64,000 nucleotides of DNA from Oscillospiraceae bacterium (GCA_902782125.1 CACZMA010000003.1:87429-151428); one strand, 5' to 3'; positions 4,279 through 64,000 are shown, counted from the first letter of the stretch. The notes: generated from the letters alone by a model not told the origin. Made by a program: numbers and translations.

Positions 4279-7200
4279 TTAAATTCTGTCTCTGTCGAGC
4301 TCGAGCTTAGCTGCTGCTTCCCTGTCCTGCTCGTCGAGGATCGCATCCTTCTCCTTAACGGCCTCGAGGTAAGCGTTCTCGAATAGAGCCTCGTCAGAAG
4401 CTTCGCTTCCGTACTCGTGACCTGTGATGAGGTTTGCATTCTCTCTGATAACAGGAACTGCCGTGATATCGTTGTGAGCCTTGATACCTGTACCGGCAGG
4501 GATGAGGGAACCGATGATAACGTTCTCCTTGATACCTGTGAGGTTGTCTGTCCTGCCCTTGATGACTGCGTCTGTGAGGACCTTCGCAGTCTCCTGGAAG
4601 GATGCTGCAGCCATGAAGGAATCAGCAGCGGTAGCAGCCTTGGCGATACCGAGGAGGATGATGTTGCCCTTTGCGGGTGTAAGACCCTGCTCCTCGCAAT
4701 CTCTGTTCTTGGAGATGAAGTTATACCAGTCAACAGTAGTACCTGTCATGAAGCCTGTGTCGCCCGGTTCATCGATCTTGACACGTCTCATCATCTGCTT
4801 TGCGATGATCTCGATGTGCTTGTCGTTGATGTTAACACCACCGCCTGAGTAGTAAACCTTTGTGATCTCGCTGATGATGTACTTCTGAACGGCACGGATA
4901 TCCTTAACCTTGAGGATCTCCTTAGGATCGATCTTACCGTCGATGATCTGATCGCCGGCTTCGATGAGCTCGCCGTTCTTAACTGTCAGCGTAGCGTGTG
5001 AAGGAACCTTGTACTCAACCTTCTCGATCGGGTTGCCCTTTGCATCGAGGATAGGCTGTGTATCTGCATCGTATACAGGTGTAACGACAATGGTCTTCTG
5101 CTTTGTCTTCTCATTCTCAACGATCCTGACACTACCGGGAACAGAAGAGATGATACCGTGACCCTTAGGATCTCTTGCCTCGAAGATCTCTGTAACTCGA
5201 GGGAGACCCTGAGTGATATCTTCACCGGAAGCAGCGATACCGCCGGAGTGGAACGTTCTCATCGTAAGCTGTGTACCAGGCTCACCGATGGACTGAGCAG
5301 CAATGATACCGACAGCCTCACCGACTGCGACCGGACGGCCTGTAGCGAGGTTGATACCGTAGCACTTTGTGCAGACACCGCGTCTGGAACGGCAGTCGAA
5401 TACGGATCTGATCTTGATCCTGCCGAGGTGCTGGATCTCTGTCTCTGAGAGGACCTTGCCGGAAGCCTCTGCCTCAGCGAGCTTGGCTGCAGCCTTCTCG
5501 TCTCTCTCGGCGATCTTCTCGGGAGTCTCCTCGCCCTTGATCTTGACGGAGTCAATGACCTTCTGGCGTGCTTCTCTTGCAGCTTCCTTAGCCTTATCAA
5601 CGGAATCGCAGATAGCCTCTGCCTTGAGTGCGTCGATGAGCTCGTCCTTTGCAACGATGACTTCGCCTGTCTGGAGGTTCATGATGTCCTCAGCGGCATA
5701 ACGGCCATACAGACGATCGTAAAGTGACTTGATAACGTTGACCTTGTTGTTGGATGTCTCGGTGATCTCCTTGACCCATGTGAAGTCATCGGTACCGCAG
5801 TCTGTCTCTGTAACAACGACGGACTGGGATACGTCAACGAGACGACGTGTAAGGTATCCTGACTCAGCGGTCTTGAGAGCCGTATCGGAGAGGGCCTTAC
5901 GTGCACCGTGTGATGAGATGAAGAACTCGAGCACGTTCATACCTTCACGGAGGTTGGACTTGATCGGGATCTCGATAGTAGCACCGGTCGTATCCTGCAT
6001 GAGTCCACGCATACCTGCGAGCTGCTTGATCTGTGATGTGGAACCACGGGCACCGGAGTCAGCCATCATACGGATAGGATTATAGATATCAAGGTTCTCC
6101 ATGAGGGCCTTGGTGATATCGTCTGTTGTCTTCTCCCAGACCTTAACGACCTGCTTATGGCGCTCGTTCTCTGTGAAGAAACCTTCCATAGCAGCTTCGT
6201 TGATCTCGTCGACCTCAACGTCACCTGCAGCGATCATCTTATCCTTGATGTCAGGGATGATCATGTCTTCGATACCGATGGAGATACCGGAGATCGTTGA
6301 ATACTTATAACCCATTGCCTTTACGTCATCGAGGAATACTGTTGTTCTCTCGAGGCCGTGAACTGCAATGCATCTTGCAATGATCTTCTCGAGCTTCTTC
6401 TTGCCCATTGCAAACTCTGTCTTGCCGCCCTTCTGATCAGCGATCTTAGGGAAGTCGATCTCGAGCTTGAGGTGATTCTCGGGGATGGATCTGTCAACGA
6501 ATCCGAGGTCCTGAGGAACTACCTCGTTGAAGATGAATCTGCCGAGTGTGGACTCTACGAGACCTGTCTCGATCTTGCCGTCGATCTCTCTTGAGACGCG
6601 GACCTTGATCATTGCATGAAGTGTGAGCTGGTGCTGATCGTAAGCCATGATAGCTTCGTCAACGGATGTGAAAGCCATACCCTCACCCTTGTCGCCCGGA
6701 ACTTCCATCGTGAGATAGTAGCATCCGAGGATCATATCCTGTGAAGGAACAGTGATCGGCTTACCGTCCTGAGGCTTGAGCAGGTTGTTGGTAGAGAGCA
6801 TGAGCAGTCTTGCCTCTGCCTGTGCTTCAGGAGAGAGCGGTACGTGTACAGCCATCTGATCTCCGTCGAAGTCGGCGTTGAATCCGGTACATACGAGCGG
6901 ATGGAGCTTGATGGCACGGCCTTCTACGAGTACAGGCTCGAATGCCTGGATGGAAAGTCTGTGGAGCGTAGGCGCACGGTTCAGGAGTACCGGATGATCC
7001 TTGATGATGTCTTCGAGGACATCCCAGACCTCAGGTGCTCTGTTGTCCACGTCCTTACGTGCTGTCTTGATATTGAGCTTGTCATTTGTGTTAACGAGCT
7101 TCTTGATTACGAAGGGCTTGAAGAGCTCGAGTGCCATCTCCTTAGGAAGACCGCACTGATGCATCTTGAGCTCAGGTCCGACGATGATAACCGAACGGCC

Positions 7201-8244
7201 GGAGTAGTCAACACGCTTACCGAGCAGGTTCTGTCTGAAACGTCCCTGCTTACCCTTGAGCATGTCGGAAAGTGACTTGAGCTGTCTGTTGGAAGTAGCG
7301 GATGTGGAGCCCTTGACAGGTGTGCCGTGACGGCCGTTGTCGATAAGAGCGTCAACTGCTTCCTGGAGCATTCTCTTCTCGTTCCTTACGATGATCTCAG
7401 GTGCGCCGAGATCGAGGAGCTTCTTAAGACGGTTGTTTCTTCCGATAACTCTTCTGTAGAGATCGTTAAGATCTGATGTAGCGTAACGGCCGCCGTCGAG
7501 CGGAACCATAGGACGGAGTTCCGGAGGAAGAACCGGGATAACATCCAGGATCATCCACTCAGGCTTATTGTCGGAAGCCTTGAAAGCCTCGCAGATCTCA
7601 AGTCTCTTGTCGATCTTGAGTCTTCTCTGTGTGCTTACGGAACCTGCCTTCTCAGCTGTCAGTTCTTCGATGATGGCATCAACGTCAACCTGTGAGAGCA
7701 GGATCTTGATAGCCTCAGCGCCCATTCTTGCGTCGAAGCCCTTCTTGCCGACCTTAGCCACTACCTGCTTGTACTGGTCTTCAGTCAGGATGTCCATCTT
7801 GTTGAGACCTGTCTCTTCCTGGTTGCCCGGATCGAGTACGATGTACTTTGAGTAGTAGAGAACGCTCTCGAGCTGCTTTACTGTCAGGTCGAGGATGGTT
7901 CCGATCTTAGAAGGCTGAGTCTTGAAGTACCAGATGTGTGATACGGGGCAAGCGAGCTCGATGTGGCCGAGTCTCTCACGGCGGACGGTGTTCTTTGTTA
8001 CCTCAACGCCGCACTTGTCGCAGATCATTCCCTTGAATCTGATCTTCTTGTACTTACCGCAACGGCACTCCCATGACTTCGTGGGTCCGAAGATCTTCTC
8101 GCAGAACAGACCGTCTACTTCAGGTCTCTGTGTACGGTAGTTTATAGTCTCAGGCTTCTTGACTTCACCGTGAGACCAGTCTCTGATGGTCTGGGGTGAA
8201 GCAAGCTGGATGCTTATTTTTGTTATACGATTTGTGTCGTTCAT
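4279..8244 (-). CDS. rpoC: RNA polymerase beta' subunit
   Basis: CRCGKY zinc site, [12 protein letters not shown] active site, [12 protein letters not shown] trigger loop. Start moved to ATG 8244 after GGAGAC RBS. Confidence 0.99.
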
Positions 8245-51375: not shown

Positions 51376-52239
51376 TCAGTATTCTTCGATAACTGTCCTC
51401 AAGCTCTCTTCCGGTACGGGCGAGTCGAACACGATGAGATATGACTTGCCGTCATGCTCAAAGACCGCCGCATTGAAATTACTTACATCGGGTGTGTCCG
51501 TATTGACCAGTGCATACGAGATGCCGCTGCCCGTGACTCCGGTCGTGGAATTGGAAGCGTTCACTGTTACACCGTTAAGATAAGTCGAAGCGAGATCCAC
51601 GCCTTCATCGGCAATGTACAGTGTGCCTGAATTGGAAGCGGCGTTGAATGTGATTATGCTTGTGCCGTTCTCCACGGACATGCTGGTCTCTACGCTGCCT
51701 TCGCCGCCATCGGGGATAAGCGCCACGATGTCTTCGTCGGGAGCATAAGTCTCCGGTCCTTTCGCAGGTCTCGTCACAACAGTTGTCGCATTTTCCGTAG
51801 GAGCAGTAGTCTCTTCTTCCCATTCTTCGCCTTCGTCATATCCGCCGTAGGAATCCGTACCGGCATCCGCGTCGCTGTCGCAGAATTCGTCCACAGCAGC
51901 TTCTCCGGCAGCTTCCGCACCGCCGTCATATGCTTCAGTCTGAGCTGCCGTATCGGGCTTTGATGACTTTGACTTGGACGAAGATGAAGACATCGCGTTG
52001 GACAGGAACGCTATCGCTATGCCGCCCACGATCAGAAGGGATGCCGCGATCGAGATTATCGCTGCTATCGGAACAGGCCTCTTCTTACGTACAACGGGCA
52101 TGGGTGTTACTTCCGCCGCGCTGCCGCCTTCCGCCTTCTGTTCGGCAATGGCCTTGGAGACGTTCGCAAGCACACGGGCCTTCATCTCGTCCGTGACTTC
52201 GATATGACTCATGTACTCATTGTACTTATTCAAAGTCAT
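51376..52239 (-). CDS. Probable membrane anti-sigma factor
   Basis: Overlaps the ECF sigma stop. Short cytoplasmic N-terminus, one TM helix (IAAIISIAASLLIVGGIAIAFL), acidic extracellular domain. Confidence 0.7.
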   Translation of the reverse strand: MTLNKYNEYMSHIEVTDEMKARVLANVSKAIAEQKAEGGSAAEVTPMPVVRKKRPVPIAAIISIAASLLIVGGIAIAFLSNAMSSSSSKSKSSKPDTAAQTEAYDGGAEAAGEAAVDEFCDSDADAGTDSYGGYDEGEEWEEETTAPTENATTVVTRPAKGPETYAPDEDIVALIPDGGEGSVETSMSVENGTSIITFNAASNSGTLYIADEGVDLASTYLNGVTVNASNSTTGVTGSGISYALVNTDTPDVSNFNAAVFEHDGKSYLIVFDSPVPEESLRTVIEEY

Positions 52240-52843
52240 TTGCCTCCTTCAGTATTTCCTTCAGCTTGTCCCTGGCGCGCTTCAGGTCGGACCTTATGGT
52301 CGCTTCCTTGCGCCCGAGTATATTCGCGATCTCCGCAGTCTTGTAACCTTCCTGATAGAACAGGTGGATGACTTCCCTCTGATTATCCGGGAGCTTCTTT
52401 ACCGCTTCCCACACATAAGACAGGTCGTCCTCTTCCTCTTCAGGCGCCGCGCCGGCGATCTCCTCGTTCAGCTCTTCCGAGCTCCTCACGCGGTTGTACT
52501 CGATACGGTTCTTGGCAAGGTTTGCCGCCACCGTGAGAAGCCATGCCTTACGGTGCTTCTCGTTCTCGAAAACAGGCTTCGTCGTGACAAACTTGATCAG
52601 GGTCTCCTGCAAGATGTCCTCGGCATCCTCCATGTTGTGCAGATAAGAATAGGCGAGCCTGAGGATGGCATTGCCGAGCTGATCCATAATCTCTACGGTC
52701 TCGCGCTCGAGACGTTCCTGTTCTGTCTCGGCACCGGCAGCTTCTACGGCAGTTCCTCCTGTACCGGCATCCGCGAAAAGCACACTCACCAGCCTTACGG
52801 CAGTAAGGATGAATCGCGGAAATAAAGCAAGCGCTCCGGTCAT
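52226..52843 (-). CDS. ECF RNA polymerase sigma factor
   Basis: AEDILQETLIK region 2, AWLLTVAAN, LPDNQREVIHLFY...TAEIANILG region 4. GGGGAG RBS. Confidence 0.93.
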   Translation of the reverse strand: MTGALALFPRFILTAVRLVSVLFADAGTGGTAVEAAGAETEQERLERETVEIMDQLGNAILRLAYSYLHNMEDAEDILQETLIKFVTTKPVFENEKHRKAWLLTVAANLAKNRIEYNRVRSSEELNEEIAGAAPEEEEDDLSYVWEAVKKLPDNQREVIHLFYQEGYKTAEIANILGRKEATIRSDLKRARDKLKEILKEANDFE

Positions 52844-53008: not shown

Positions 53009-54859
53009 ATGAGAAGCGGCACTGACAGGATCTTCTTTAAGAGCGGACTGAGGTATTTCCTGGTCCTGGTATTCACTACGCTCATTTTCCTTATAATCCT
53101 GGGTCTGCAGCTGCTCTCCGTAAGCATCACCACTTTCTATTATCTGGGTGTAACGCTGATGTTCCTGTCGTTCCTGATGAACATCGCGCTCGACAAATTC
53201 GGTTTCTACGCATCTTTTGTGCTGAACTTCCTGCAGTTCCTGGCATATGCATACGAGTATCTTGTCATGGACAATGGTGCGGCTCCGGTCATGATGGCCA
53301 TGACATTCACGGTCATGACCATGGATCTGTTCCTGCAGTACTACATCATCCGCATGGCCAACAAGATCTATGAGGACTGGAAGACCAACAGGAAGGAAAG
53401 GAATGCCCGCATAGCAAAGGAGCTCGAGGAAGAGATGTTCTCGAGGACAAGCCTCATCGTCAATCACGAGGAGATGGACAAGAAGAACGAGAACATAAGC
53501 GAAGCTCTGGGCGAGAGCCTGGCAAGCTCGATCGATCCTCTCACAACTCTCCCCGGAAGAGAGATGATCACGGCCAGGATGGACAGGCATATCGCAGACG
53601 ATGTTGCCACCATGCAGTCAGCCAAGACACCTGACGCGCAGTGTCATCCCTTCTCCGTCATATATGTCGGTCTCGACGGCTATGAGGATCTCAGCCGCGA
53701 GATCGGATACAAGTCAATGGACCTCTTTATCCAGAATATGGCTCACCGCGTCCGCGAGGCCGCCCTGCCCTCTGACATGGTCGCAAGGCTGGTCAATGCC
53801 GAGTTCATCGTGCTGTCAAGAAGGTCGATGAGCGATCTGGAGTCGGACGCCTATGCCCGTAAGCTCGCGACATCCTGCATGAAGGCTTTCGAGAGCGGAA
53901 GCGATAAGCTCTCCGTAAGCGTATCCTGCGGAGTGGCGAATTACCCCCGTGACGGAAGGATCGCAGGCGAACTCATCGCCAAGGCGGAAGAGGCAAGGCT
54001 TGCGGTAAGAGATACCGAACACGGCAAGGTCGGCAAGATCTCCATGACAAAGTACGCAGACATGGCCAAGGTCATGGAACGCGCGGGTAAGCTCTTCGAA
54101 GGCAAGACGCAGCATGAGATCACGTCGATCTTCGAATCTGCGATAGAAGACGGAAGCCTGCACATGATATATCAGCCCTGCTTTACTCAGGACAGGACTC
54201 TCCTGGGCTTCGAGGCGTTCATGAGATTCGAGCACGGCAAGGACCTTATCCCGCCCCAGGTGTTCCTCTCGGCTGCAGAGAATGCGGATTACATCAACAG
54301 GATCGGCGGATTCTCGATAGACCAGAGCCTCAAGGCGCTCGCGCTCTTCGATGCCAACCGCCCGGGACTTACGATGAACCTCAATATCTCCACGAGCCAG
54401 CTCAAGAACCCCGGATTCATCAATATGCTGTCCAATGCGGTATCCAATGCCGACTGCAAACTCATGAACCTGATGCTGGACATTCCCGAAGAAGGCCTGT
54501 TCACGGAGTTGCCTGACATCAAGGAAGCTATCGAGAAGCTGTCTGCCAAGGGAGTGAAGATGGCACTGGATAATTTCGGACGCGGCTATTCTTCGTTCAA
54601 TGCGATCCCGCTCCTGCCCATCACGGTGCTGAAGCTGGACGGTAACTTTACGGGTAATCTTGCGTCGGATGCAAATGTCCGCGTGCTCTCTGCGTCCGTG
54701 ATCTCACTGATGCACGATATCGACATCAAGGTCTGTGCCACCGGAGTAGGCTCCGATGAGCAGTTCAGGATCCTCGCCGAGCAGGGATGCGACATCTTCC
54801 AGGGCAAATACCTTGGCCCTGCAATGACGCTGGAAGAAGCTTTGGAATCTATTACCTGA
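53009..54859 (+). CDS. Membrane-bound GGDEF-EAL protein, both domains degenerate
   Basis: N-terminal TM helices, DPLTTLPGR, RLVNAEF in place of GGDEF, EAFMR, DNFGRGYSS, ATGVG in place of EGVE. Confidence 0.88.
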   Translation: MRSGTDRIFFKSGLRYFLVLVFTTLIFLIILGLQLLSVSITTFYYLGVTLMFLSFLMNIALDKFGFYASFVLNFLQFLAYAYEYLVMDNGAAPVMMAMTFTVMTMDLFLQYYIIRMANKIYEDWKTNRKERNARIAKELEEEMFSRTSLIVNHEEMDKKNENISEALGESLASSIDPLTTLPGREMITARMDRHIADDVATMQSAKTPDAQCHPFSVIYVGLDGYEDLSREIGYKSMDLFIQNMAHRVREAALPSDMVARLVNAEFIVLSRRSMSDLESDAYARKLATSCMKAFESGSDKLSVSVSCGVANYPRDGRIAGELIAKAEEARLAVRDTEHGKVGKISMTKYADMAKVMERAGKLFEGKTQHEITSIFESAIEDGSLHMIYQPCFTQDRTLLGFEAFMRFEHGKDLIPPQVFLSAAENADYINRIGGFSIDQSLKALALFDANRPGLTMNLNISTSQLKNPGFINMLSNAVSNADCKLMNLMLDIPEEGLFTELPDIKEAIEKLSAKGVKMALDNFGRGYSSFNAIPLLPITVLKLDGNFTGNLASDANVRVLSASVISLMHDIDIKVCATGVGSDEQFRILAEQGCDIFQGKYLGPAMTLEEALESIT

Positions 54860-54872
54860 TCTTAAGAATAAA

Positions 54873-55613
54873 TCAGTCCAGAAGATCTGCGAGAGAGCTG
54901 ATCTCATCGCAGGGCAGGTTACGTGCGACCGTGGGAGACTGCTCTGTCTGGATATAGCAAGCTGCCATGTTCGCAGCCATACCGCCCCTGACATCGCCGA
55001 ACTCGTCAGATCCGATGAGAACGCAGTCCTTTGCCTTGATCTCGGAATTCTTAAGTGCAGCGGTGAAGAATGCCTTGGAGGGCTTCTTTGCTCCGATCTC
55101 GGAAGAGATCTGGATGCCGTCGAACAGGTCGATCAAGCCGAGGCTCTCAAGCTCCGGGATGGAGAAGCATGCCTGGCCGTTAGTGAACAGATAGATCTTC
55201 TTGCCCCTCTTCTTCAGTTCCTCGAGGACCTTCTTTGCCTCGGGATAGAGAGCGAGCTTGGTTATGGAGATGCTCCTGAAGGTGAGCGCAGCCTCATCGA
55301 CCTCCGATGAGAATACCCTGCAGCCCTTCTGGGTGAACAGTTCCTTGAATACTTCGGACAGATCGAAGTCGGCCTCTTCGGCAGCGAGCTTGGACTTGCC
55401 CTTCTTGGATTTCTTGGCGGAAGCTTCGGCGTGCTCACGGCAGAGTCTCGAATATTCCTCGCGGAACTCGACTTCGTCGTAGCTTGCGCCCTTCATGGAA
55501 TAATATCTTGCCATGGAGCTCCAGAGATACGGAAGGTTCTCATCCGTGCGGATATCTACCAGAGTGCCATATAAACTGAATACGAAGTTGTTTTTTGTGT
55601 CAAACATAGCCAT
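54873..55613 (-). CDS. HAD-superfamily protein lacking the motif I nucleophile Asp
   Basis: FSLYGTLVD (motif I), FTNG, KKPS, IGSDEFGD. Confidence 0.8.
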   Translation of the reverse strand: MAMFDTKNNFVFSLYGTLVDIRTDENLPYLWSSMARYYSMKGASYDEVEFREEYSRLCREHAEASAKKSKKGKSKLAAEEADFDLSEVFKELFTQKGCRVFSSEVDEAALTFRSISITKLALYPEAKKVLEELKKRGKKIYLFTNGQACFSIPELESLGLIDLFDGIQISSEIGAKKPSKAFFTAALKNSEIKAKDCVLIGSDEFGDVRGGMAANMAACYIQTEQSPTVARNLPCDEISSLADLLD

Positions 55614-55722: not shown

Positions 55723-56325
55723 TTATGTTTTTCCTGCAACAAATTCGATGATCCGGGCCGCATGGTCCGCTCCGAGCACATCAGTATTGATGCAGAGATC
55801 GTATGTCGCGGCATAGCCCCACTCGTTCCCGGAGAACTGATTATAGTAGGCTGCACGCTCCTTATCGGCACGCAGGACCTTCTTTTTGGCCTCTTTCTCG
55901 GTCAGATGTTCTCTATTCATAACATGAACTATGCGGGATTCGACCGAAGCGGTAATAAAAACGCTCAGGAGGTTGGGCTTCTCTGCAAGGATCTCGTTCG
56001 CACGGCGGCCGACGATGACGCAGGGGCCTTCTGCGGCGATCTTCTCTATGACTTCTCTCTGGGCATTGGCGGCGATCTGCCTTACCGATGAATATGTCGG
56101 GCTCATATAGCCTACCGACATGTAGAGCGCCGCGTCGTTGATCTCCTTCTCGTCGACGCTGGCCAGGTATTTCTCGTCCAGGCCGCTGCTCCTGGCAGTC
56201 TCTGCGAGGAGTTCCGAATCGTAATACGGGATCTTCAGGTCTTCTGCGACCTGTCTGCCGATCGACCTTCCTCCTGCTCCGTAAGACCTTCCTATCGTTA
56301 TGATCTTTCCTGTTGCAGCTGCCAT
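55723..56325 (-). CDS. Cytidylate kinase-like family protein
   Basis: ITIGRSYGAGGRSIG, CVIVGRRAN, YDLCINT. ATG 56325 after GGAGGTG. Confidence 0.85.
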   Translation of the reverse strand: MAAATGKIITIGRSYGAGGRSIGRQVAEDLKIPYYDSELLAETARSSGLDEKYLASVDEKEINDAALYMSVGYMSPTYSSVRQIAANAQREVIEKIAAEGPCVIVGRRANEILAEKPNLLSVFITASVESRIVHVMNREHLTEKEAKKKVLRADKERAAYYNQFSGNEWGYAATYDLCINTDVLGADHAARIIEFVAGKT

Positions 56326-56358: not shown

Positions 56359-56383
56359 ATTATATGTATGCTTCAAGCATACA
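56359..56383 (-). promoter_or_regulatory. Perfect 19-bp palindrome abutting a TATAAT -10 box, candidate operator
   Basis: TGTATGCTT-C-AAGCATACA (56365-56383), immediately upstream on the minus strand of TATAAT (56364-56359). Confidence 0.6.
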
Positions 56384-56428: not shown

Positions 56429-57193
56429 TTACTCTGCCTCGGCGTCTTCGTTTGCTTTCTCCTCTTCCTTCGCGGCGGCAGCATGCTTCATGTGCCAGAA
56501 GTAATAGCAGATGCTTCCCACGAGGAAAGTTACGATGATGAGGGCGCCGATTATGAAGAGCCTTATATAGTTGCCGTTGTTGAGCGCACTGCCTCCGATG
56601 GCGGAGAGGAATATCGCCGGGAACCTTCCGATAAAGGTTATCGCGATCCAGACGGGAAGCTTCATGTCAGTAAATCCGATGAAATATGTAATGATGTCCT
56701 TGGGCGTTCCCGGGATTAGGAAGAGTATGAACGTCACCATGTCCCTCTTGGGCGAATACTTGAGGAACTTGACCTGATCGAGCTTGTCCTTCGGCACAAA
56801 GAGTTCGACGAACCTCATGCCGAACTTCCTTACCATGAGGAACACGAACAGACTGCCCACCGTCATGGCAACATCGGCGATGATGGAACCCAGCACGGTC
56901 CCGAAAGCATATCCCGCGGCAACCTCGAAGGGACCGCCGGGAATAACAGCCGCGACGACCTGCAGGAACATGCAGATCATGAACATTATGATGCTCCACG
57001 GCTTCTTGTCGTGCATATAGGCACGGAACTCGGCAGGGTTCTCCGCCATCTCGAGCATCGGCTTGCAGATGAGGAAAGACAGCACGATCACCACCGAGAA
57101 GATGGCGACCAGGAGCAGGATCGCGAGGGCTCTCTTGCGTATGGTCTCTTTACTTGCCGGCTGCTTTTTTTCCGGATTCTTTTTTGTTCTCAT
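56429..57193 (-). CDS. TVP38/TMEM64 (DedA/VTT) membrane protein
   Basis: FLQVVAAVIPGGPFEVAAGYAFG, FLIPGTPKD, GRFPAI. Confidence 0.88.
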   Translation of the reverse strand: MRTKKNPEKKQPASKETIRKRALAILLLVAIFSVVIVLSFLICKPMLEMAENPAEFRAYMHDKKPWSIIMFMICMFLQVVAAVIPGGPFEVAAGYAFGTVLGSIIADVAMTVGSLFVFLMVRKFGMRFVELFVPKDKLDQVKFLKYSPKRDMVTFILFLIPGTPKDIITYFIGFTDMKLPVWIAITFIGRFPAIFLSAIGGSALNNGNYIRLFIIGALIIVTFLVGSICYYFWHMKHAAAAKEEEKANEDAEAE

Positions 57194-58430
57194 TTTCTTC
57201 TTTCTGCTCGAGCTGCTTCAGCTTGGCGACGATATAGTCAGCGGTATTGGAGGCACCTTCGCCCCTGCACTGCCAGATCTCTTCCCTCGCCTGTGCGCGG
57301 GTCTCCTTGAACTTGGGGTTGGTCAGACACTCTTCGATAAGGTCCTTGACGCCTGCGGCATTGTCTATCGTAAGACCCATGCCGATCTTTGGGAGCATCG
57401 TGAGCGACCAGGGCTCTTCCTTCAGGAAGTAGTAGTCATACTGACCCTTGTCGAACTCGATGTCTGCATATATGACGGGCTTGTCGAAGATGAATGCGAA
57501 GTCCAGCATGACACCCGAGAAGTCGGAGATCATGATGTCGGACCTTCTCAGAACTTCGAAGTTGTCATTGTCCCTGTTCCACTCGAGGTTCTCGCTGTCC
57601 GGGAACTCCGCCATGAGACGGTCGATGACGTCCTTATCCGCGGTAAACGACTGCGGGTGAGGCCTTATGATGACGTGGTAGCCTGTATCGAGAAGATTCT
57701 TTATCATCGTCTCGCCGTATCTTACGAGAAGACTGGAAACGCCCCACGAAGGCGCGAGAAGGACCGTTGTCTTGTCCGACTTCGGTGCGGGACCTGCAGC
57801 CTCGACGCGCTTCATCATCTCGTCCATATAGGGGATGCCGACGATCCTGAGTTCCTTCTTGGGAAGTCCGCGGAGCTTCTCGAGTTCTCTTATCTGATCG
57901 ATCTGCACCTGGCCCGAGAAGAGTATCGCATCAAAATAGTCGAGCTCGAACATCCTGTAGGATGCCGCATCTCTCGGAGCGTGCATAATGTGCACATAGT
58001 AATCAACGGATCTCGATCGCTTCCACTGGAGAACGTCGAGGCCCGGGGTGGTACAGAACACCAATGTGGCATTGAGCATGTTGAGCCTTGTGAAGGCCTT
58101 GTTGCCCTCGCCGATGAATTCAGTCTTGATGTGCTTGTATTCCTTGGACAGCGCCGGATCATCAGGCGACGATGTCATGAATACGGTATTTACTCCTCTT
58201 GCTTCGAGTTCGTCGCAGATGGGTTCGAATGTGTTCCAGTAACGCTTCGAATCCGAATAGATGACAAGCGGGATCCTGTTCTTGTCCGCTTTCCTTCCTG
58301 CGCCTGACTTGAGCTTGATGATGAGAGTCCTGACAAGATAGACGGCCGCACTCAGGATGCCTATCAGGACCGTGAAGAGCATCGAGCCCGTGCCCGGATC
58401 GATGTAAAGACTGAAGAGCTGATTAACCAT
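57150..58430 (-). CDS. CDP-glycerol:glycerophosphotransferase (TagB/TagF-like) family protein
   Basis: YIDPGTGS leader plus TM helix, VGIPYMD, VLLAPSWG, IRPHPQ, ISDFSGVMLDFAFIFDKPVI. Confidence 0.85.
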   Translation of the reverse strand: MVNQLFSLYIDPGTGSMLFTVLIGILSAAVYLVRTLIIKLKSGAGRKADKNRIPLVIYSDSKRYWNTFEPICDELEARGVNTVFMTSSPDDPALSKEYKHIKTEFIGEGNKAFTRLNMLNATLVFCTTPGLDVLQWKRSRSVDYYVHIMHAPRDAASYRMFELDYFDAILFSGQVQIDQIRELEKLRGLPKKELRIVGIPYMDEMMKRVEAAGPAPKSDKTTVLLAPSWGVSSLLVRYGETMIKNLLDTGYHVIIRPHPQSFTADKDVIDRLMAEFPDSENLEWNRDNDNFEVLRRSDIMISDFSGVMLDFAFIFDKPVIYADIEFDKGQYDYYFLKEEPWSLTMLPKIGMGLTIDNAAGVKDLIEECLTNPKFKETRAQAREEIWQCRGEGASNTADYIVAKLKQLEQKEENENKKESGKKAAGK

Positions 58431-59541
58431 TGATGTACTCCATAAAGTTGTTCTTGTTCTCTATCGCCGTTGTCGTCGGTCTTCCGAGATCCGCTCTCGC
58501 TCCGACCTGACACTTTATCTCAATGAATATGAGCTCATCCGACGTCCTTGCTTCTTCAAGCGCGGAGGCAAGACCTTCTTCATCCGATACGGTAAGAGCC
58601 TTCGGATATCCGCAGGCCCGGGCCACGCCGGGAAGATCAACGGAGCCTGCGACAGTGGGCATTCCTCCGACAGTCTCGTGAGCTTCATTGTTGATAACGA
58701 TGTGGACCATGTTGGAAGGTTTGTTCTCTCCTATCACGGCCATCGAACCCATGTGCATGAGAGCAGCGCCGTCGCCGTCGATGCACCATACCTTGAGCTC
58801 AGGCCTGTTGAGCGCCACGCCGAGTGCGATGCTCGAGCAGTGACCCATGGAACCGACGGTAAGGAAATCATACTTGTGGCTCATGCCCTGCGCCGTACGG
58901 TACTCGAAGAGTTCTCTCGATATCTTGCCCGTCGTGGACACGATGGGATCTTCTCCTGCCGCAGCTGCGATCTGCCCTACCACGAACTCGCGGTTAAGGG
59001 TAAAGGCATTGCTGTAATCGACTTTGCCTTCGAACTCGAGCGCGCCTTTGCGCACGACGAATGCGACCTGCTTGCCGTTTGCAAGAAGTCCTTTGAACCC
59101 GTCTATAACCCCGGCAAGTTCTTCCTCGGTCGTATCGGGACCTATCACAAAGTTGGCGACATCCATATCGTCTAAGAGCTTTGTCGTGACCATTCCCTGA
59201 TAGATGTGCTGGGGCTCGTCATGAACGCCGGGCTCGCCTCTCCATCCGATGATGAATATCGTCGGTATGGCATACACCTTGTCATTAAGAAGCGATGCAA
59301 GAGGATTGATTATGTTGCCCTCGCCGGAATTCTGCATATAGACGACGGGCACCTTGCCGGTCGCCATGTGATAGCCTGCCGCGAGTGCAGCACAGTTACC
59401 TTCGTTCGCAGCTATGATGTGATGGTGCGGGTCTATCCCGTACTTGCTCATGAGGCAGTTGCACAGCGCCTTGAGCTGCGAATCCGGAACTCCCGTATAG
59501 AAGTCCGCGCCTATAAGATCCATCAGTCTTTCAACTCTCAT
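58423..59541 (-). CDS. aepY: Phosphonopyruvate decarboxylase
   Basis: GVPDSQLK, AANEGN, YMQNSGEGN, EPQH, TVGSMGH, IDGDGAALMHMG...NN TPP motif. Confidence 0.95.
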   Translation of the reverse strand: MRVERLMDLIGADFYTGVPDSQLKALCNCLMSKYGIDPHHHIIAANEGNCAALAAGYHMATGKVPVVYMQNSGEGNIINPLASLLNDKVYAIPTIFIIGWRGEPGVHDEPQHIYQGMVTTKLLDDMDVANFVIGPDTTEEELAGVIDGFKGLLANGKQVAFVVRKGALEFEGKVDYSNAFTLNREFVVGQIAAAAGEDPIVSTTGKISRELFEYRTAQGMSHKYDFLTVGSMGHCSSIALGVALNRPELKVWCIDGDGAALMHMGSMAVIGENKPSNMVHIVINNEAHETVGGMPTVAGSVDLPGVARACGYPKALTVSDEEGLASALEEARTSDELIFIEIKCQVGARADLGRPTTTAIENKNNFMEYING

Positions 59542-59551
59542 ATCTGTCTCC

Positions 59552-60535
59552 TCACAGGTTGTGGTAGATGTTCACTATGTCTTCGTGCGTAAGCGCCACC
59601 GGGTTGTTCGAGAGCCTGTCGAGATTGACGCTGTCTGCAAGACCGTCATAATCTTCTTCGGCTATCTCCGGCTTCGGGAGTGCCAGGTATTCGAAGAATT
59701 CCCTGAACTGCGCCTTGTAGTCTTCGACGAACTTCATGTTGTCCGTCCTGCCTTCCATGAAGTCCCACAGTGCGTTAACGCAGAGGAGCGCCGCATGTCC
59801 GTGGGCAAGCCCGTACTTTGTCGTAAGCTTGTAGCAGAGGGCGTGGCCTCCGGTCGTTTTCGTTATGTTGATGGCTTCGCCTGCTTCGAATGCAGCATCC
59901 ATCATCGCACCGAAGGTCGTATCGTCGCTCTCGAGATAGGCCTTGTAGCCGGTAAAGATCTTATCGAGCGCGCTGTATGAGAACTTCCTGCTCTCTTCGC
60001 ATGTGGCGGCAGACCATGCGGATTCGACTGCATGGCAGACCGCATCCGACAGTGTCGCCTTCTTCTGATAGAGCGGCAGGCCTTCCAATACGGAAGGATC
60101 GATGAGGACCACATCCGGCAGCATAGAATCAGATGTCAGAGATGTCTTGGTGCCGTTATCGTAGATGACCGCAAATCTCGTTGCCTCGCTTCCCGTTCCG
60201 GCCGTGGTCGGGATGGCTGCAAAAGGCACCTTAAGTTCACCTTCGAACTTTATGGCCTTGGCAACATCCATCGCACTTCCGCCGCCTGCACCGACGATCG
60301 TATCGGCACCGCTCTCCCTGAATGCTTCAATGCCCTTCACAACGGAAGAGTGATCCGGGTTAGGCGTAAAATCCCTGAAGTAAGTGATCCTGAATCCGAC
60401 AGCCGCCAGGCAGTCAAGGAACCTTCCGGGCGCAATGCCTGCGAACGAATTGCCGCACACCACGAACAGGCTCTTAAGACCTCTCGCGGACAGCCACCTT
60501 GCAAACTCGTTGTAGTCTCTTATAACTTCGCTCAT
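59552..60535 (-). CDS. Iron-dependent (group III) alcohol dehydrogenase, probable phosphonoacetaldehyde reductase
   Basis: GAGGGSAMDVAK, IPTTAGTGSE, DAVCHAVES, GHALCY...HGH. Lies between pepM and ppd. Confidence 0.85.
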   Translation of the reverse strand: MSEVIRDYNEFARWLSARGLKSLFVVCGNSFAGIAPGRFLDCLAAVGFRITYFRDFTPNPDHSSVVKGIEAFRESGADTIVGAGGGSAMDVAKAIKFEGELKVPFAAIPTTAGTGSEATRFAVIYDNGTKTSLTSDSMLPDVVLIDPSVLEGLPLYQKKATLSDAVCHAVESAWSAATCEESRKFSYSALDKIFTGYKAYLESDDTTFGAMMDAAFEAGEAINITKTTGGHALCYKLTTKYGLAHGHAALLCVNALWDFMEGRTDNMKFVEDYKAQFREFFEYLALPKPEIAEEDYDGLADSVNLDRLSNNPVALTHEDIVNIYHNL

Positions 60536-62541
60536 AATTCCTCCGGAATAAGCCTGATGATCTGCTTGAATCCCATCAGGTGTTCGTCAGCTTCCTTCGC
60601 GCGGTGATTCTTAAGGATCTCCTCGGCAGTCTGCTGCATCGCGGGAACCTCTGCTCTCATGAGCTGGTTCGCATATATGACGACATTGACACCGAGCTTC
60701 TTCCACTCGTCTTCCTTAACGGAATTGAACGATGTGGGAACGATGACTATCGGTGTGACCTTGTCCTGACTTCTGAACTTGTTGATGAACTCGATGATCT
60801 CATCCGGGTCAGGTCTTCTCGAGTGGATCATGATGCCGTCTGCGCCAGCCTTGACGAAAGCAAACGCACGCTCCAGAGCGTCCTCCATTCCGCGCTCCAG
60901 GATAAGGCTCTCGATCCTGGCGATGATCATGAAGTCAGATGACTTCTGCGCCTTCTTGCCGGCAGCGATCTTCGCGCTCATCTCCTCTATCGTAGCCTGT
61001 GTCTGCTCGACTTCGGTACCGAACAGGGAATTCTTCTTGAGGCCCTTCTTATCCTCGATGATGACGGCAGATACGCCGAGCTTCTCGAGTGATCTTACCG
61101 TGTATACGAAATGCTCCGTAAGTCCGCCTGTATCTCCGTCGAAGATGATCGGCTTCGTCGTGACTTCGGTGATATCGTCTATCGTCCTGAACCTTGATGT
61201 CATGTCGACGAGCTCGATATCGGGCTTGCCCTTCGCGGTCGAATCGCAAAGCGATGATATCCACATGCCGTCGAACTGATAAGATGCGCCGCCGTCGTGG
61301 ACCACCGTATTCTCTACAATGAGTCCGCTGATGCCGTCATGCGCTTCCATCATCGTTACAAGGCCCTTCATCGCGATGAGCTTCCTGAGCCTTCCGCGCC
61401 TGTTATCGGGCAGCGAGAGCTCGAGTCTCGCGCGGTTATCAACTTCCTTGAGCCTGGGATCGGATGAATAAGGGAACTCGACGAGCCTGCCGCCGTATGT
61501 TCCGAGAAGTTCTATTACCTCCTCACGGATGCTCTTCTGGAATCCTTCCTTCCAGTTATCGCCGTGAACTATGATGTCCGGATGATACTGCTCGATCACA
61601 TCCTTGTAGCTGAGCGTATCCTGTTCAACTACCTTCCAGACGCCCTTTACCGACTTGAACATCGCGCAGCGCTCCTCGAAAGGAACGAGCGGATAGCGCT
61701 TGTAGGATGCCACTGCCTCATCGCTCATGACGCCGGCTATCACTCTTCCGAGCCTTACCGCTCTCTTGATGAGCTTAAGGTGTCCGCTGTGCAGGATGTC
61801 CGTAGAGAAACAGATATATACCGTCGTGTTCTTGATGGCTTCGAGCCTGTCCGATACAGTCTTCAGATCCTCGGGGTTATCGACCTCGCCGCAGAGCATC
61901 TCTCCGACGTCGTACGGCTTGATCTCAGTATCAGCGGAGACCTCATTAAGAGCCTTCTCCGCATAGCAGTTTGTGTTGTCTTCTTCGCAGTATCTTACGA
62001 TGGCAGCAAGCCACACTTCCCAGTCCTTGCGTGTGAGCTTGTACAGGGGCTGAGCTGCTACCGCGTCATCGAAAAACTCCACTCCTACCTTCGTGATCCT
62101 GCCGCCTTCCACGACCGCCTTGAAGTCCTTCTCGGGAAGAGGAACTGAAGAAGATACCGTCATGGCAGAACCTTCCTGCTCGAGCATGCCGTCCAATACG
62201 GCATTCTCGAAAACAAGGTCTCCGTGCATGAGCAGGATGTCGTCATGGAGAAGCTCTCTTGCCATGTATATCGAGTAGATGTAGTTCGTCTTGTCATAGA
62301 CGGGGTTCGCTACATATGTGATGTTTATCGGCAGTCTGAGAGACGCGATGTAGCTCTCGAGCACATCTGCAAAAGGGCCCGTCGTCATGACGATGTCGGT
62401 GATGCCGACATCAGCGAGCTGGCTGAGCTGCCTGCTTACGATCGTCTTGCCGATGGAGAGTTCCGTCATGCATTTGGGATGCTCGTTTGTAAGGTCTCCC
62501 ATTCTCTTGCCGAGTCCGGAGTTAAGGATAAGTGCTTTCAT
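60532..62541 (-). CDS. pepM: Triple fusion: NTP-transferase + TagD-like cytidylyltransferase + PEP phosphomutase
   Basis: NSGLGKRMG...HPKC (NTP transferase), DILHSGH and VHGDNW (HxGH cytidylyltransferase), MEAHDGISG and EDKKGLKKNS (EDK-X5-NS PepM motif). ATG 62541 overlaps the upstream TAA. Confidence 0.95.
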   Translation of the reverse strand: MKALILNSGLGKRMGDLTNEHPKCMTELSIGKTIVSRQLSQLADVGITDIVMTTGPFADVLESYIASLRLPINITYVANPVYDKTNYIYSIYMARELLHDDILLMHGDLVFENAVLDGMLEQEGSAMTVSSSVPLPEKDFKAVVEGGRITKVGVEFFDDAVAAQPLYKLTRKDWEVWLAAIVRYCEEDNTNCYAEKALNEVSADTEIKPYDVGEMLCGEVDNPEDLKTVSDRLEAIKNTTVYICFSTDILHSGHLKLIKRAVRLGRVIAGVMSDEAVASYKRYPLVPFEERCAMFKSVKGVWKVVEQDTLSYKDVIEQYHPDIIVHGDNWKEGFQKSIREEVIELLGTYGGRLVEFPYSSDPRLKEVDNRARLELSLPDNRRGRLRKLIAMKGLVTMMEAHDGISGLIVENTVVHDGGASYQFDGMWISSLCDSTAKGKPDIELVDMTSRFRTIDDITEVTTKPIIFDGDTGGLTEHFVYTVRSLEKLGVSAVIIEDKKGLKKNSLFGTEVEQTQATIEEMSAKIAAGKKAQKSSDFMIIARIESLILERGMEDALERAFAFVKAGADGIMIHSRRPDPDEIIEFINKFRSQDKVTPIVIVPTSFNSVKEDEWKKLGVNVVIYANQLMRAEVPAMQQTAEEILKNHRAKEADEHLMGFKQIIRLIPEEL

Positions 62542-64000
62542 TACCATTCCCCCTCATATGTCCAATTGTCTTTGTTCCACAGATCGTCTTTTACGGAATA
62601 CCAGTATCCGGGAAGATACGTGGTGCCGTTGTTCTTGTCTACTTCCCACTCCGTGGAATTGAAGAGAAGCAGATCGCCGTATTTGTCTTCGTTCGTGATC
62701 GGGTTGCCCGTGTAAGGGTTAACCGGATCGTCTACAACATCCTTCAGTGCAAGATACGGTGTATCCGCATTGGTCATGAATTCGTCTGAAGTGGTAAAGC
62801 CCGTGGCGCCGAAGTCCTTGACCATGAACAGCGGCGTGAACCACTCCGCATCGAGTCCGACCTCGAGGTCAGACAGGAACAGATCCGAGAATCCTCCGAG
62901 ACCCGATCCGTGATCTGCGACCACGATGATCTTCGTGTTGTCATACACGCCCTGCTCACGCAGATAGTCGAGCCAGTCGGCAAGTGCATAGAGCGATGCG
63001 GTGTTGATCTGATAGTGTGCGTAATCGAACGAGTCGAGCATGATCATGGTCTTGCCGTTAACGGTGAACCTCGCCATGTTCGTCTGATCGAATACGGTGT
63101 TGTCGATATAATCTGCAGGCAGATAATCGGGCTCAGACAGGAGCGCCGGATTGTGTGTCGACTTGCATGTGAAGAACAGGAAATTGTTCGAAGATCCGTT
63201 ATCGATTATGGTCATAGATTCAAGGCCCAGGAGCGCATAGTACTCGGACTCAAAATCCTTGTTGTGTCCGTATGCCGTGGAAGGGCCCGTGATGACCTGC
63301 GAAGACTCTGAGATATCGACCAGCGTCGTCTCGTTGTAATTGCCGTTGTCGTAGAAGATGCTCTGCAGGAGAACGGGCGCCGACTTGTAGAGCGAATACG
63401 AGAAGAGGTTGTGTCTGATCTCATCGTCGTATGCTTTGCCGAAATCTATTCTCGAATACTTGAAGAGCGTGTTGTATGCCTTAACGCCTTCCATGTCATC
63501 GAAGATGCCGAGGCTCGGATACCAGGTGTAGCCCGCATAAGAAGGATTGATCATGACGGAATTGAATCCGTTCTCCGAGAAGATCGCGGGAAGCACCTTG
63601 AGCGCTTCGTCGTGCTTATCCATGAGAAGCTCGTCGTCTCTTGCATTGAGCTTGTCGGGAGTATATTCGTATCCGCCGTAGAGTGCCGGTGCCGCGAAGT
63701 TCGTCCACGCACCGAATGAGATGGTGTTGCTGTAGTAAGTAAATCCGTCGAGTCTCTCTTCAAGGTCAGGGTGCTCTGCAAGGATATAGGGGATCATCGG
63801 TCCTATCGCACGGTCGAGCATGATGACGACGACGTTCTGTCCTTCTGTGGACAGGGTGAACTCCGGCATCTCGGTCGAATACTGACCCTTGACTGTCTTA
63901 TATCCCTCTTCGATCTTAACGGCGTTGACGATACCCATTACAAAGAACACAAGCGAAGCGGATATCGCGATGACCGCAGCAGCAGTTCTTGCAAATCTTA
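62541..64000 (-). CDS. LtaS/sulfatase-fold (alkaline phosphatase superfamily) membrane phosphotransferase, 5' end outside the window
   Basis: Frame stays open to 64000 (a TM helix precedes the domain). VMLDRAIG, AWTN (Thr nucleophile position), STHNP, VADHG motifs. Confidence 0.75.
   Translation of the reverse strand, partial: RFARTAAAVIAISASLVFFVMGIVNAVKIEEGYKTVKGQYSTEMPEFTLSTEGQNVVVIMLDRAIGPMIPYILAEHPDLEERLDGFTYYSNTISFGAWTNFAAPALYGGYEYTPDKLNARDDELLMDKHDEALKVLPAIFSENGFNSVMINPSYAGYTWYPSLGIFDDMEGVKAYNTLFKYSRIDFGKAYDDEIRHNLFSYSLYKSAPVLLQSIFYDNGNYNETTLVDISESSQVITGPSTAYGHNKDFESEYYALLGLESMTIIDNGSSNNFLFFTCKSTHNPALLSEPDYLPADYIDNTVFDQTNMARFTVNGKTMIMLDSFDYAHYQINTASLYALADWLDYLREQGVYDNTKIIVVADHGSGLGGFSDLFLSDLEVGLDAEWFTPLFMVKDFGATGFTTSDEFMTNADTPYLALKDVVDDPVNPYTGNPITNEDKYGDLLLFNSTEWEVDKNNGTTYLPGYWYSVKDDLWNKDNWTYEGEW

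Follow-up and report, generated by a model that had tools for sequence, protein, structure and literature searches.

A set of six genes at the end of a 64,000-nucleotide stretch of DNA from an Oscillospiraceae bacterium (GCA_902782125.1; G000:C3:87429-151428, hereafter the window) probably makes the phosphonate 2-hydroxyethylphosphonate (HEP), activates it with CTP to CMP-HEP (the cytidine monophosphate derivative) and installs it on the cell envelope. The genes encode a phosphoenolpyruvate (PEP) mutase fusion protein (PepM, also called Ppm), a phosphonopyruvate decarboxylase (Ppd), an iron-type alcohol dehydrogenase (ADH), a TagF-like transferase, a DedA protein and a membrane phosphotransferase that carries a YidC-like domain. 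An earlier note on this DNA had proposed that the operon supplies HEP to a teichoic-acid-like polymer in an anaerobic Firmicute. The genome (2.14 Mb in 24 contigs, 97.8% complete) has its nearest public loci in rumen metagenome-assembled genomes labelled Clostridiales, Ruminococcaceae or Saccharofermentans, so the proposed host is reasonable; the polymer, as described below, was not supported. The features concerned, all on the minus strand and in window positions, are as follows.

62541..64000, minus: C-terminal 486 codons of the YidC-like::five-helix::EptA/LtaS-like transferase (60KD_IMP + Sulfatase)
to window-equivalent 65123 (G000:C3:149969-152551), minus: the same gene in full, YidC_Sulf1, 860-862 aa
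61843..62547, minus: LicC/PntC-like nucleotidyltransferase domain of PepM, aa 1-235 (PF12804, PF00483)
61462..61830, minus: Fom1-type cytidylyltransferase domain of PepM, aa 240-362 (PF01467, PDB 5x3d)
60532..61398, minus: PEP mutase domain of PepM, aa 384-671 (TIGR02320, PDB 1m1b)
59552..60535, minus: predicted PhpC-type Fe/Zn alcohol dehydrogenase, 327 aa (PF00465)
58423..59541, minus: phosphonopyruvate decarboxylase Ppd (TIGR03297)
57150..58430, minus: TagF-like phosphotransferase (PF04464, Glyphos_transf)
56429..57193, minus: DedA/VTT-family membrane protein (PF09335)
55723..56325, minus: cytidylate-kinase-like protein, ~200 aa from the ATG at 56325 (PF13189, 180 bits)
54873..55613, minus: HAD-family hydrolase resembling pyrimidine 5'-nucleotidases (PF00702, PF13419)

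Open-reading-frame calls and reading of the minus strand bore out the six genes and all the junctions described for them, and the operon genes are translationally coupled at every junction. At the first of these, GAATGGTAATGAAA (minus strand), the TAA stop of the YidC fusion overlaps the second ATG of pepM (TAATG at 62541); because a Shine-Dalgarno sequence, GAGGGGG, lies 7 nt upstream of this second ATG, it is the likely start of PepM. The genes for PepM and the ADH share an ATGA at 60532-60535, the 10-nt gap between those for the ADH and Ppd contains GGAG, the genes for Ppd and the TagF-like protein overlap by 8 nt (ATGGTTAA), and those for the TagF-like protein and DedA overlap by 44 nt.

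The first two steps of the predicted pathway are assigned with equivalog-level matches. The mutase domain scores 398.2 bits against TIGR02320 (cut-off 319.55), matches PDB 1m1b with E=1e-42 and carries the signature EDKKGLKKNS at aa 498-507, an instance of the EDKxxxxxNS motif that separates Ppm from its isocitrate-lyase relatives. Ppd scores 457.4 bits against TIGR03297 (cut-off 312.5) and consists of TPP_enzyme_N and TPP_enzyme_C alone, with no middle domain. At the level of family assignment, PepM would convert PEP to phosphonopyruvate, Ppd would decarboxylate this to phosphonoacetaldehyde and the ADH would reduce the aldehyde to HEP. The three-domain PepM of Oribacterium sinus DSM 17245 (L043, L045) lacks both a Ppd and an ADH in the 10 kb to each side of it.

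Phosphonoacetaldehyde is the branch point from which PhpC leads to HEP and the 2-aminoethylphosphonate (AEP) transaminase leads to AEP (Li & Horsman 2022, PMC8942020). The earlier note had seen no AEP transaminase in the window and had called for a look beyond position 64000; none lies there, and the absence extends to the whole genome, which we searched both with the TIGR03301 profile and with a bona fide AEP transaminase from Schwartzia (L050). Genome-wide, no PhnW or AEP transaminase was found: the best TIGR03301 match, a class V aminotransferase, reaches 138 bits where the cut-off is 361, and the same protein, at 28% identity, is the sole match to the Schwartzia query. Since its gene sits beside that for the phosphoglycerate dehydrogenase SerA, it is taken to be an enzyme of the serine pathway, and AEP was rejected as the product. 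In a genome without an AEP transaminase the ADH is, as far as sequence can tell, the only plausible sink for the aldehyde.

Comparison with related loci leads to the same assignment. A scan of a genome collection yielded 80 such loci, half with a three-domain PepM like that described here and half with a two-domain (cytidylyltransferase-PepM) form. An iron-type ADH accompanies 33 of the 40 three-domain proteins, none of which has an AEP transaminase beside it; the 40 two-domain proteins are accompanied by an AEP transaminase in 34 loci and by an ADH in one (Fisher p=3e-14 for PepM domain type versus ADH). Because the 80 loci split in this way by PepM type, ADH and AEP transaminase are, judged by gene content, alternative sinks for phosphonoacetaldehyde. 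The sole locus with both (L085, Clostridiales Firm_14, an AEP-type cluster) encodes a 761-aa protein at 5523-7808 whose C-terminal half is a PhpC-like ADH. Another locus, in Butyrivibrio sp. X503 (L047 11310-15030), has neither enzyme; its cytidylyltransferase-PepM and Ppd are separated by genes for a metallophosphoesterase, an NAD epimerase/dehydratase, a DUF6564 protein and a saccharopine-dehydrogenase-like protein, with two YidC-transferases and a TagF-like gene adjoining, and this gene set may represent another phosphonate branch.

The ADH itself (PF00465, 126 bits, above the Pfam cut-off) belongs to group III. At 327 aa it is shorter than the 369-aa orthologues through two internal deletions, of ~21 and ~23 residues, and this compact form is common only to the present genome and its two closest relatives. 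It retains the NAD motif and the metal ligands predicted for it, D164, H231, H245 and H247, the ligands being invariant, and dN/dS against the two nearest relatives is 0.06-0.075. Such purifying selection argues that the compact enzyme is functional and, together with the retained ligands, rules out a short pseudogene in decay. Taken with its company of pepM and ppd and its occurrence in place of the AEP transaminase, these features mark it as a predicted phosphonoacetaldehyde reductase of the PhpC/FomC type. (Of note, the ADH at 59552-60535 of this species and of L006 and L007 is 44-46% identical to those of other congeners, versus 76-85% for the flanking PepM, Ppd and TagF-like proteins, which points to accelerated change or replacement of the ADH alone, along with the two deletions.) The route from PepM through Ppd and ADH to HEP that had been put forward is therefore supported by the near mutual exclusion of ADH and AEP transaminase, by the lack of PhnW or AEP transaminase in the genome and by the likeness of the PepM-fused cytidylyltransferase to that of Fom1, considered next; HEP is very probably the product predicted by these genes.

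The nucleotidyltransferase-PepM fusion of the earlier note stands as a fusion, but two different nucleotidyltransferase domains, not one, precede the mutase. The middle domain, N-terminal to PepM and with HSGH as its HxGH motif, matches the cytidylyltransferase of Fom1 (PDB 5x3d) at ~50% identity (E=1.5e-34, 122 bits); ethanolamine-phosphate cytidylyltransferase reaches 56 bits and TagD 36 bits. The middle domain is thus assigned from sequence to the Fom1 type, and the PepM-fused domain is by likeness the closest relative of the sole enzyme known to make CMP-HEP; a cytidylyl transfer that would turn HEP into CMP-HEP is accordingly a strong expectation. The N-terminal domain has the GxGxR motif (LNSGLGKRMG) and matches LicC (PDB 1jyk) and the PntC fusion of T. 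denticola (6pd1) weakly, with E~1e-7 over 115-134 aa. Both types of nucleotidyltransferase occur in HEP-type and AEP-type clusters alike, so that either domain may be the one that activates HEP; loci with a two-domain PepM usually carry a separate MarR::LicC-like nucleotidyltransferase.

The early fosfomycin pathway of Streptomyces wedmorensis (Fom1, Fom2, FomC) is among the closest parallels, with the same PepM, Ppd, phosphonoacetaldehyde reductase and cytidylylation of HEP, and with the cytidylyltransferase of Fom1 placed N-terminal to PepM as it is here. One might accordingly suppose that the product of the operon is an antibiotic-type phosphonate, released as a diffusible natural product, and that its membrane proteins serve export or self-protection, since the equivalents of Fom1, Fom2 and FomC cover the first three steps of fosfomycin biosynthesis. 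We regard this as very improbable: the fosfomycin tailoring genes Fom3 and Fom4 are absent from the locus, the operon and its flanks contain no radical-SAM methyltransferase, HEPD/MPnS-type oxygenase, epoxidase, ATP-grasp enzyme or non-ribosomal peptide synthetase, and the partners are all envelope transferases. The present protein also differs from Fom1 by its extra LicC/PntC-like domain, and CMP-HEP is here probably a donor for membrane transferases rather than a transient intermediate. In this respect the locus resembles the Pnt clusters, in which PntC activates phosphonates with a nucleotide for surface decoration (Rice et al. 2019, PMC6697681). Those clusters have been linked mostly to AEP and to LicD-like phosphotransferases or glycosyltransferases; in the present genome no LicD was found, and the candidate transferases are the TagF-like enzyme and the YidC::EptA/LtaS-like fusion.

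The TagF-like protein scores 44.7 bits against PF04464 (cut-off 22.1). Sequence searches of the PDB with this protein and with the transferase domain of the fusion gave only weak matches (E of 0.06-0.7), for which reason we turned to AlphaFold2 models and Foldseek. The model of the TagF-like protein (mean predicted local distance difference test, pLDDT, 84.5) has TagF (3l7k, E=4.6e-11) as its top match in the PDB, with a TagF-like capsule polymerase also near the top. Three histidines (H147, H150 and H258) are invariant, and the RPHP, APSW and SDFSGV motifs align with TagF, H258 in RPHP falling on the RMHY of TagF; from sequence and model, therefore, we place the protein in the TagF family of glycerophosphotransferases. 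It is only ~15% identical to TagF and differs from it in having a single N-terminal transmembrane helix, which is preceded by an invariant YIDPGTGSMLF motif. The chemistry proposed for TagF and TarF, in which an acceptor hydroxyl attacks the distal phosphorus of a cytidine-linked donor and CMP leaves, could apply here with a phosphonate anhydride as the donor. Consistent with a change of donor within the family, the TagF-like CD0244 of C. difficile has been proposed to transfer a CDP-activated head group other than glycerol (PMC10714395). The idea that a TagF-like enzyme uses the activated phosphonate is supported as likely; its acceptor, given earlier as a wall polymer or lipid, may as far as sequence goes be a lipid, a glycan or a protein.

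The teichoic-acid-like polymer, in contrast, found no support. Genome-wide there is no TIGR01518 match that would indicate TagD, and hence a CDP-glycerol supply, save the PepM-fused cytidylyltransferase domain at 41 bits (cut-off 165), and there is no LicD; on these grounds a classical teichoic acid was rejected, CDP-ribitol genes not having been part of the search. A glycerol-phosphate teichoic acid is unlikely, as is a fosfomycin-like product. TagF and LtaS both polymerise a hydroxyl-bearing phospho-head group, and the fold matches obtained here include TagF, LtaS and the TagF-like capsule polymerase. It is on this account imaginable that the TagF-like or the LtaS-like enzyme uses the free hydroxyl of HEP to build poly(hydroxyethylphosphonate), a teichoic-acid analogue with a C-P backbone. 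We hold this to be improbable: pairs of the same transferases also serve AEP and an amino-alcohol-type supply (see below), neither of which can be polymerised in that way, and transfer of single units is therefore more parsimonious.

The gene at the window end had been read as an LtaS-like transferase. The family assignment stands, and the window portion scores 37.7 bits against the Sulfatase family, above the Pfam cut-off; the gene is cut by the window end, however, and in full encodes a fusion of a YidC/60KD_IMP domain (80.9 bits), five transmembrane helices and a Sulfatase-family domain (35 bits), which resembles MCR-1, EptA and PbgA in structure as closely as it does LtaS. The best fold matches of its AlphaFold2 model (pLDDT 89) are full-length MCR-1, PbgA, LtaP/LtaS, EptA and phosphonate monoester hydrolase. 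In the model the five helices (aa 239-414) precede the transferase domain, T474 lies at the N-terminus of a helix, and D437 and D737/H738 follow beta-strands. Together with H657, these residues are invariant across 34 homologues of the fusion, and in the model they occupy the places of the metal ligands and the threonine nucleophile of the alkaline-phosphatase superfamily. The fusion thus shares with LtaS, EptA, MCR-1 and PbgA the arrangement of five transmembrane helices followed by an extracytoplasmic alkaline-phosphatase fold, the threonine nucleophile and the Asp/Asp-His metal ligands, and as modelled it is a membrane phosphotransferase of the LtaS/EptA type. It differs from them in sequence (11-16% identity), in its N-terminal YidC-like domain and in being present in several copies per genome. 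We infer that the transferase domain lies outside the membrane from the basic linker that follows the YidC-like domain and from the five helices after it.

The N-terminal 225 aa of the fusion score 81-91 bits against PF02096 and match the E. coli and Bacillus YidC structures. A housekeeping YidC is encoded separately in the genome and keeps the arginine in the hydrophilic groove at transmembrane helix 1, which is reportedly essential in Gram-positive YidC (Kumazaki et al. 2014). In all eight fusion copies aligned, this arginine is replaced by serine or asparagine. Because of this replacement the fused domain, which has the fold of the YidC/Oxa1 insertases and lacks their groove arginine, is unlikely to be a normal insertase; it differs from them further in a family-specific FKGDERFM motif and in being permanently joined to an enzyme. 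The family is large, comprising at least 1,457 clusters when grouped at 50% identity (E<=1e-30), and almost all of its 150 best matches are 820-950 aa long. A third copy in the present genome (G000:C7:44258-46876; L086 6258-8879) has no TagF-like gene next to it; its neighbours encode a GT2 protein, an LPG_synthase_TM protein and a CAAX protease of the Rce1-like kind. The TagF-like gene of Schwartzia likewise has an Rce1-like gene at its side (L050 6877-7602).

The remaining gene of the operon encodes a polytopic membrane protein of the DedA/VTT family (PF09335, 64.8 bits; cut-off 33.9). Beyond it, a gap of ~100 nt with a hairpin separates DedA from the cytidylate-kinase-like gene, whose start near 56325 was read from an ATG and a Shine-Dalgarno sequence; the HAD hydrolase that follows matches TIGR02253 and TIGR02254 below their cut-offs. 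The hairpin, TGTATGCTTcaaGCATACA at 56365-56383, has a perfect stem of 8 bp and on the minus strand is preceded by a run of A and followed by TATAAT; it may act as a terminator, as a processing site or within a promoter. Promoter and terminator scans performed no better than on shuffled sequence, yielding only this hairpin and, in the 110-nt divergent region upstream of the operon, hexamers that resemble promoter elements, and an Rfam scan of the window gave no match. Just downstream of the locus lie genes for an ECF (extracytoplasmic function) sigma factor (minus strand, 52226-52843) and a GGDEF-EAL protein (plus strand, 53009-54859).

Gene order ties the transferases to the phosphonate genes. 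The order YidC-transferase, three-domain PepM, ADH, Ppd, TagF-like, DedA and cytidylate-kinase-like is kept in 11-12 related loci, in which the YidC-transferases are 57-92% identical. DedA directly follows the TagF-like gene in 11 related loci, with cytidylate-kinase-like copies 70-97% identical downstream of it, and the HAD gene is a conserved neighbour in the closest relatives. A congener that lacks PepM (G017) has a syntenic locus made up of the HAD gene, the cytidylate-kinase-like gene and, beside it, the TagF-like gene, then a nucleotidyltransferase::CobD-like fusion, a LuxR-type regulator, DedA and two YidC-transferases. In another congener (G141) the HEP operon and the nucleotidyltransferase::CobD-like gene occupy a single locus. 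Pairs of TagF-like and YidC-transferase genes adjoin HEP-type and also AEP-type clusters, the latter for example in Schwartzia and Butyrivibrio. In two loci of other taxa (L034, L042) it is the TagF-like partner that carries the YidC domain, beside a three-domain PepM. Across 151 genomes of the order, PepM and the YidC-transferase are both present in 23, PepM alone in 5, the transferase alone in 11 and neither in 112 (p=2e-14, with no correction for phylogeny); within the genus the two occur together in 21 genomes, the other classes holding 2, 2 and 5 (p=0.003).

In this genome the CobD-like fusion lies on another contig (G000:C5:45479-47317; L087 5479-7317, minus strand). It has 612 aa and joins a LicC-like nucleotidyltransferase to a class I/II aminotransferase-fold domain, whose best match is the threonine-phosphate decarboxylase CobD (173 bits, below the cut-off); orthologues 56-64% identical lie inside the corresponding loci of G141 and G017. 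From its domains the fusion probably makes a CDP-activated amino-alcohol head group. Given that a nucleotidyltransferase joined to a pyridoxal-phosphate-type fold exists in the genome, as in the PntC::AEP-transaminase fusion of T. denticola, and that the G141 orthologue sits inside the locus, this protein is the candidate for an unrecognised aminotransferase through which AEP might be made after all. That possibility we consider close to negligible, the family match being to CobD rather than to an AEP transaminase and the ADH being conserved and under selection. Moreover, the orthologue in G017, 64% identical, operates in a cell without PepM, and its substrate is therefore not derived from phosphonoacetaldehyde; the protein was ruled out as a cryptic AEP transaminase. 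(The neighbouring gene, at G000:C5:47443-50553 or L087 7443-10553, encodes a 1036-aa protein with an N-terminal TIR/ThsB-like domain and PQQ/beta-propeller repeats, and is probably a defence gene.) Across the 110-nt divergent region upstream of the operon lies a paralogous pair (L001 3663-7564, window-equivalent 65235-69136, plus strand) that encodes a TagF-like protein of 427 aa (55% identical) and a YidC::transferase of 873 aa (49% identical), with a GDSL lipase and a NUDIX/NrtR-type regulator after it; this second pair probably serves the other head group, that of the CobD-like supply.

In the genus, then, a predicted "installer" locus of TagF-like, YidC-transferase, DedA, cytidylate-kinase-like and HAD genes is constant. 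Because G017 keeps the locus without PepM and G141 has both supplies, it is the head-group supply that swaps, and the putative installer is, on gene content, head-group-agnostic, being served within the genus by HEP, AEP or the CobD-like supply. The HEP module can also join other partners: in Xylanibacter it adjoins LicD within an exopolysaccharide locus, and in Anaerovibrio a stand-alone sulfatase-family membrane protein. Carriers available in culture are, for the HEP module, Anaerovibrio slackiae WCA-693-APC-5D-A and Xylanibacter ruminicola D31d and, for the installer together with AEP, Schwartzia succinivorans DSM 10502 and Butyrivibrio sp. X503.

These findings suggest the following course for the envelope steps. 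The membrane-anchored TagF-like enzyme would use CMP-HEP at the cytoplasmic face, releasing CMP and joining the phosphonyl head group to a hydroxyl of a membrane-bound acceptor, for which a lipid is the simplest choice; the CMP would be recycled by the adjacent cytidylate-kinase-like protein. The product would be translocated by DedA, by the YidC-like domain (its groove arginine lost) or by both, after which the extracytoplasmic EptA/LtaS-like domain, with its threonine nucleophile and Asp/Asp-His metal site, would move HEP from the lipid donor to the final envelope acceptor, in the way that EptA transfers phosphoethanolamine and LtaS glycerol phosphate. As a tentative extension, the YidC fold without its insertase arginine might act as a permanent subunit that docks the YIDPGTGSMLF segment and conducts the HEP phosphonolipid from the TagF-like to the EptA/LtaS-like site, in which case the trio could be a self-contained relay that makes a donor lipid, flips it and transfers whichever CMP- or CDP-activated head group the neighbouring supply genes furnish.

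A shorter route, in essence that of the earlier note, deserves weight, if well under even chances: the TagF-like enzyme might put HEP directly from CMP-HEP onto a cytoplasmic lipid-linked precursor of a wall polymer or glycan that is exported later, leaving the YidC-transferase and DedA to a separate job such as another decoration or the recycling of carrier lipid. Lipid-linked polymer precursors on the cytoplasmic side of the membrane are the usual substrates of the TagF family, CD0244 has been proposed to decorate a sugar directly (PMC10714395), the Xylanibacter HEP module with its single cytoplasmic LicD indicates that one transferase can suffice, and there are copies of the YidC-transferase, such as that on contig C7, without an adjacent TagF-like gene. 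On the other hand, no glycan-assembly genes (glycosyltransferases, flippase or polymerase) were found in or beside the operon, and the TagF-like and YidC-transferase genes travel as a pair by phosphonate genes in many loci, with the YidC domain fused to either partner, which argues that the two form one machine.

Several observations tell against the proposed sequence of HEP synthesis, activation and relay to the envelope. The lipid-donor relay is drawn by analogy alone, and the gene content would fit just as well if the TagF-like enzyme passed its group directly to a nascent glycan. Members of the YidC-transferase family number three in this genome and up to 8 or more in congeners, and the family occurs in about 10 genomes that lack PepM; it is therefore not specific to phosphonates. 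Its association with PepM is confounded by shared ancestry, most positives belonging to one genus. The proposed scheme accounts for one only of the two nucleotidyltransferase domains of PepM, and because the Fom1-type fusion is equally present in AEP-type clusters, likeness to Fom1 is by itself no proof of specificity for HEP. Finally, the best NCBIfam match of the ADH, TIGR03405, reaches 129 bits, far below the cut-off of 424; PhpC-type enzymes are very divergent and reduce phosphonoacetaldehyde efficiently (PMC13576164), and we attribute the low score to this divergence. With these points taken into account, we still think it probable that the operon makes HEP and attaches it to the envelope.

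Both the HEP-type clusters and the triple PepM fusions have been catalogued before: fusions of PF12804, PF01467 and Ppm make up 2.9% of Ppm, and PhpC-type neighbourhoods 8.5% of ppm neighbourhoods (PMC6697681 / PMC8942020). Neither of these papers mentions a glycerophosphotransferase or a sulfatase-family partner, and our literature search turned up no work that deals with YidC-sulfatase fusions or with a glycerophosphotransferase in a phosphonate cluster, so the TagF-like and YidC::EptA/LtaS-like installer appears to be undescribed in the literature searched. Phosphonate decoration of bacterial surfaces is genetically common; little is known of the enzymes by which the activated phosphonate is attached, and the tailoring steps have been called "enigmatic" (Rice et al. 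2019, PMC6697681). The TagF-like enzyme, the YidC::EptA/LtaS-like fusion and DedA provide a defined set of candidates for this attachment. If the YidC fold has indeed been repurposed from protein insertion, that would be of wider interest, and the fusion family appears to be a general installer of head groups in rumen and gut Clostridia. Within a single genus, HEP, AEP and amino-alcohol-type supplies are naturally swapped, and such swapping could underlie variation of the cell surface that is relevant to phage, to the host and to phosphatase resistance in the rumen.

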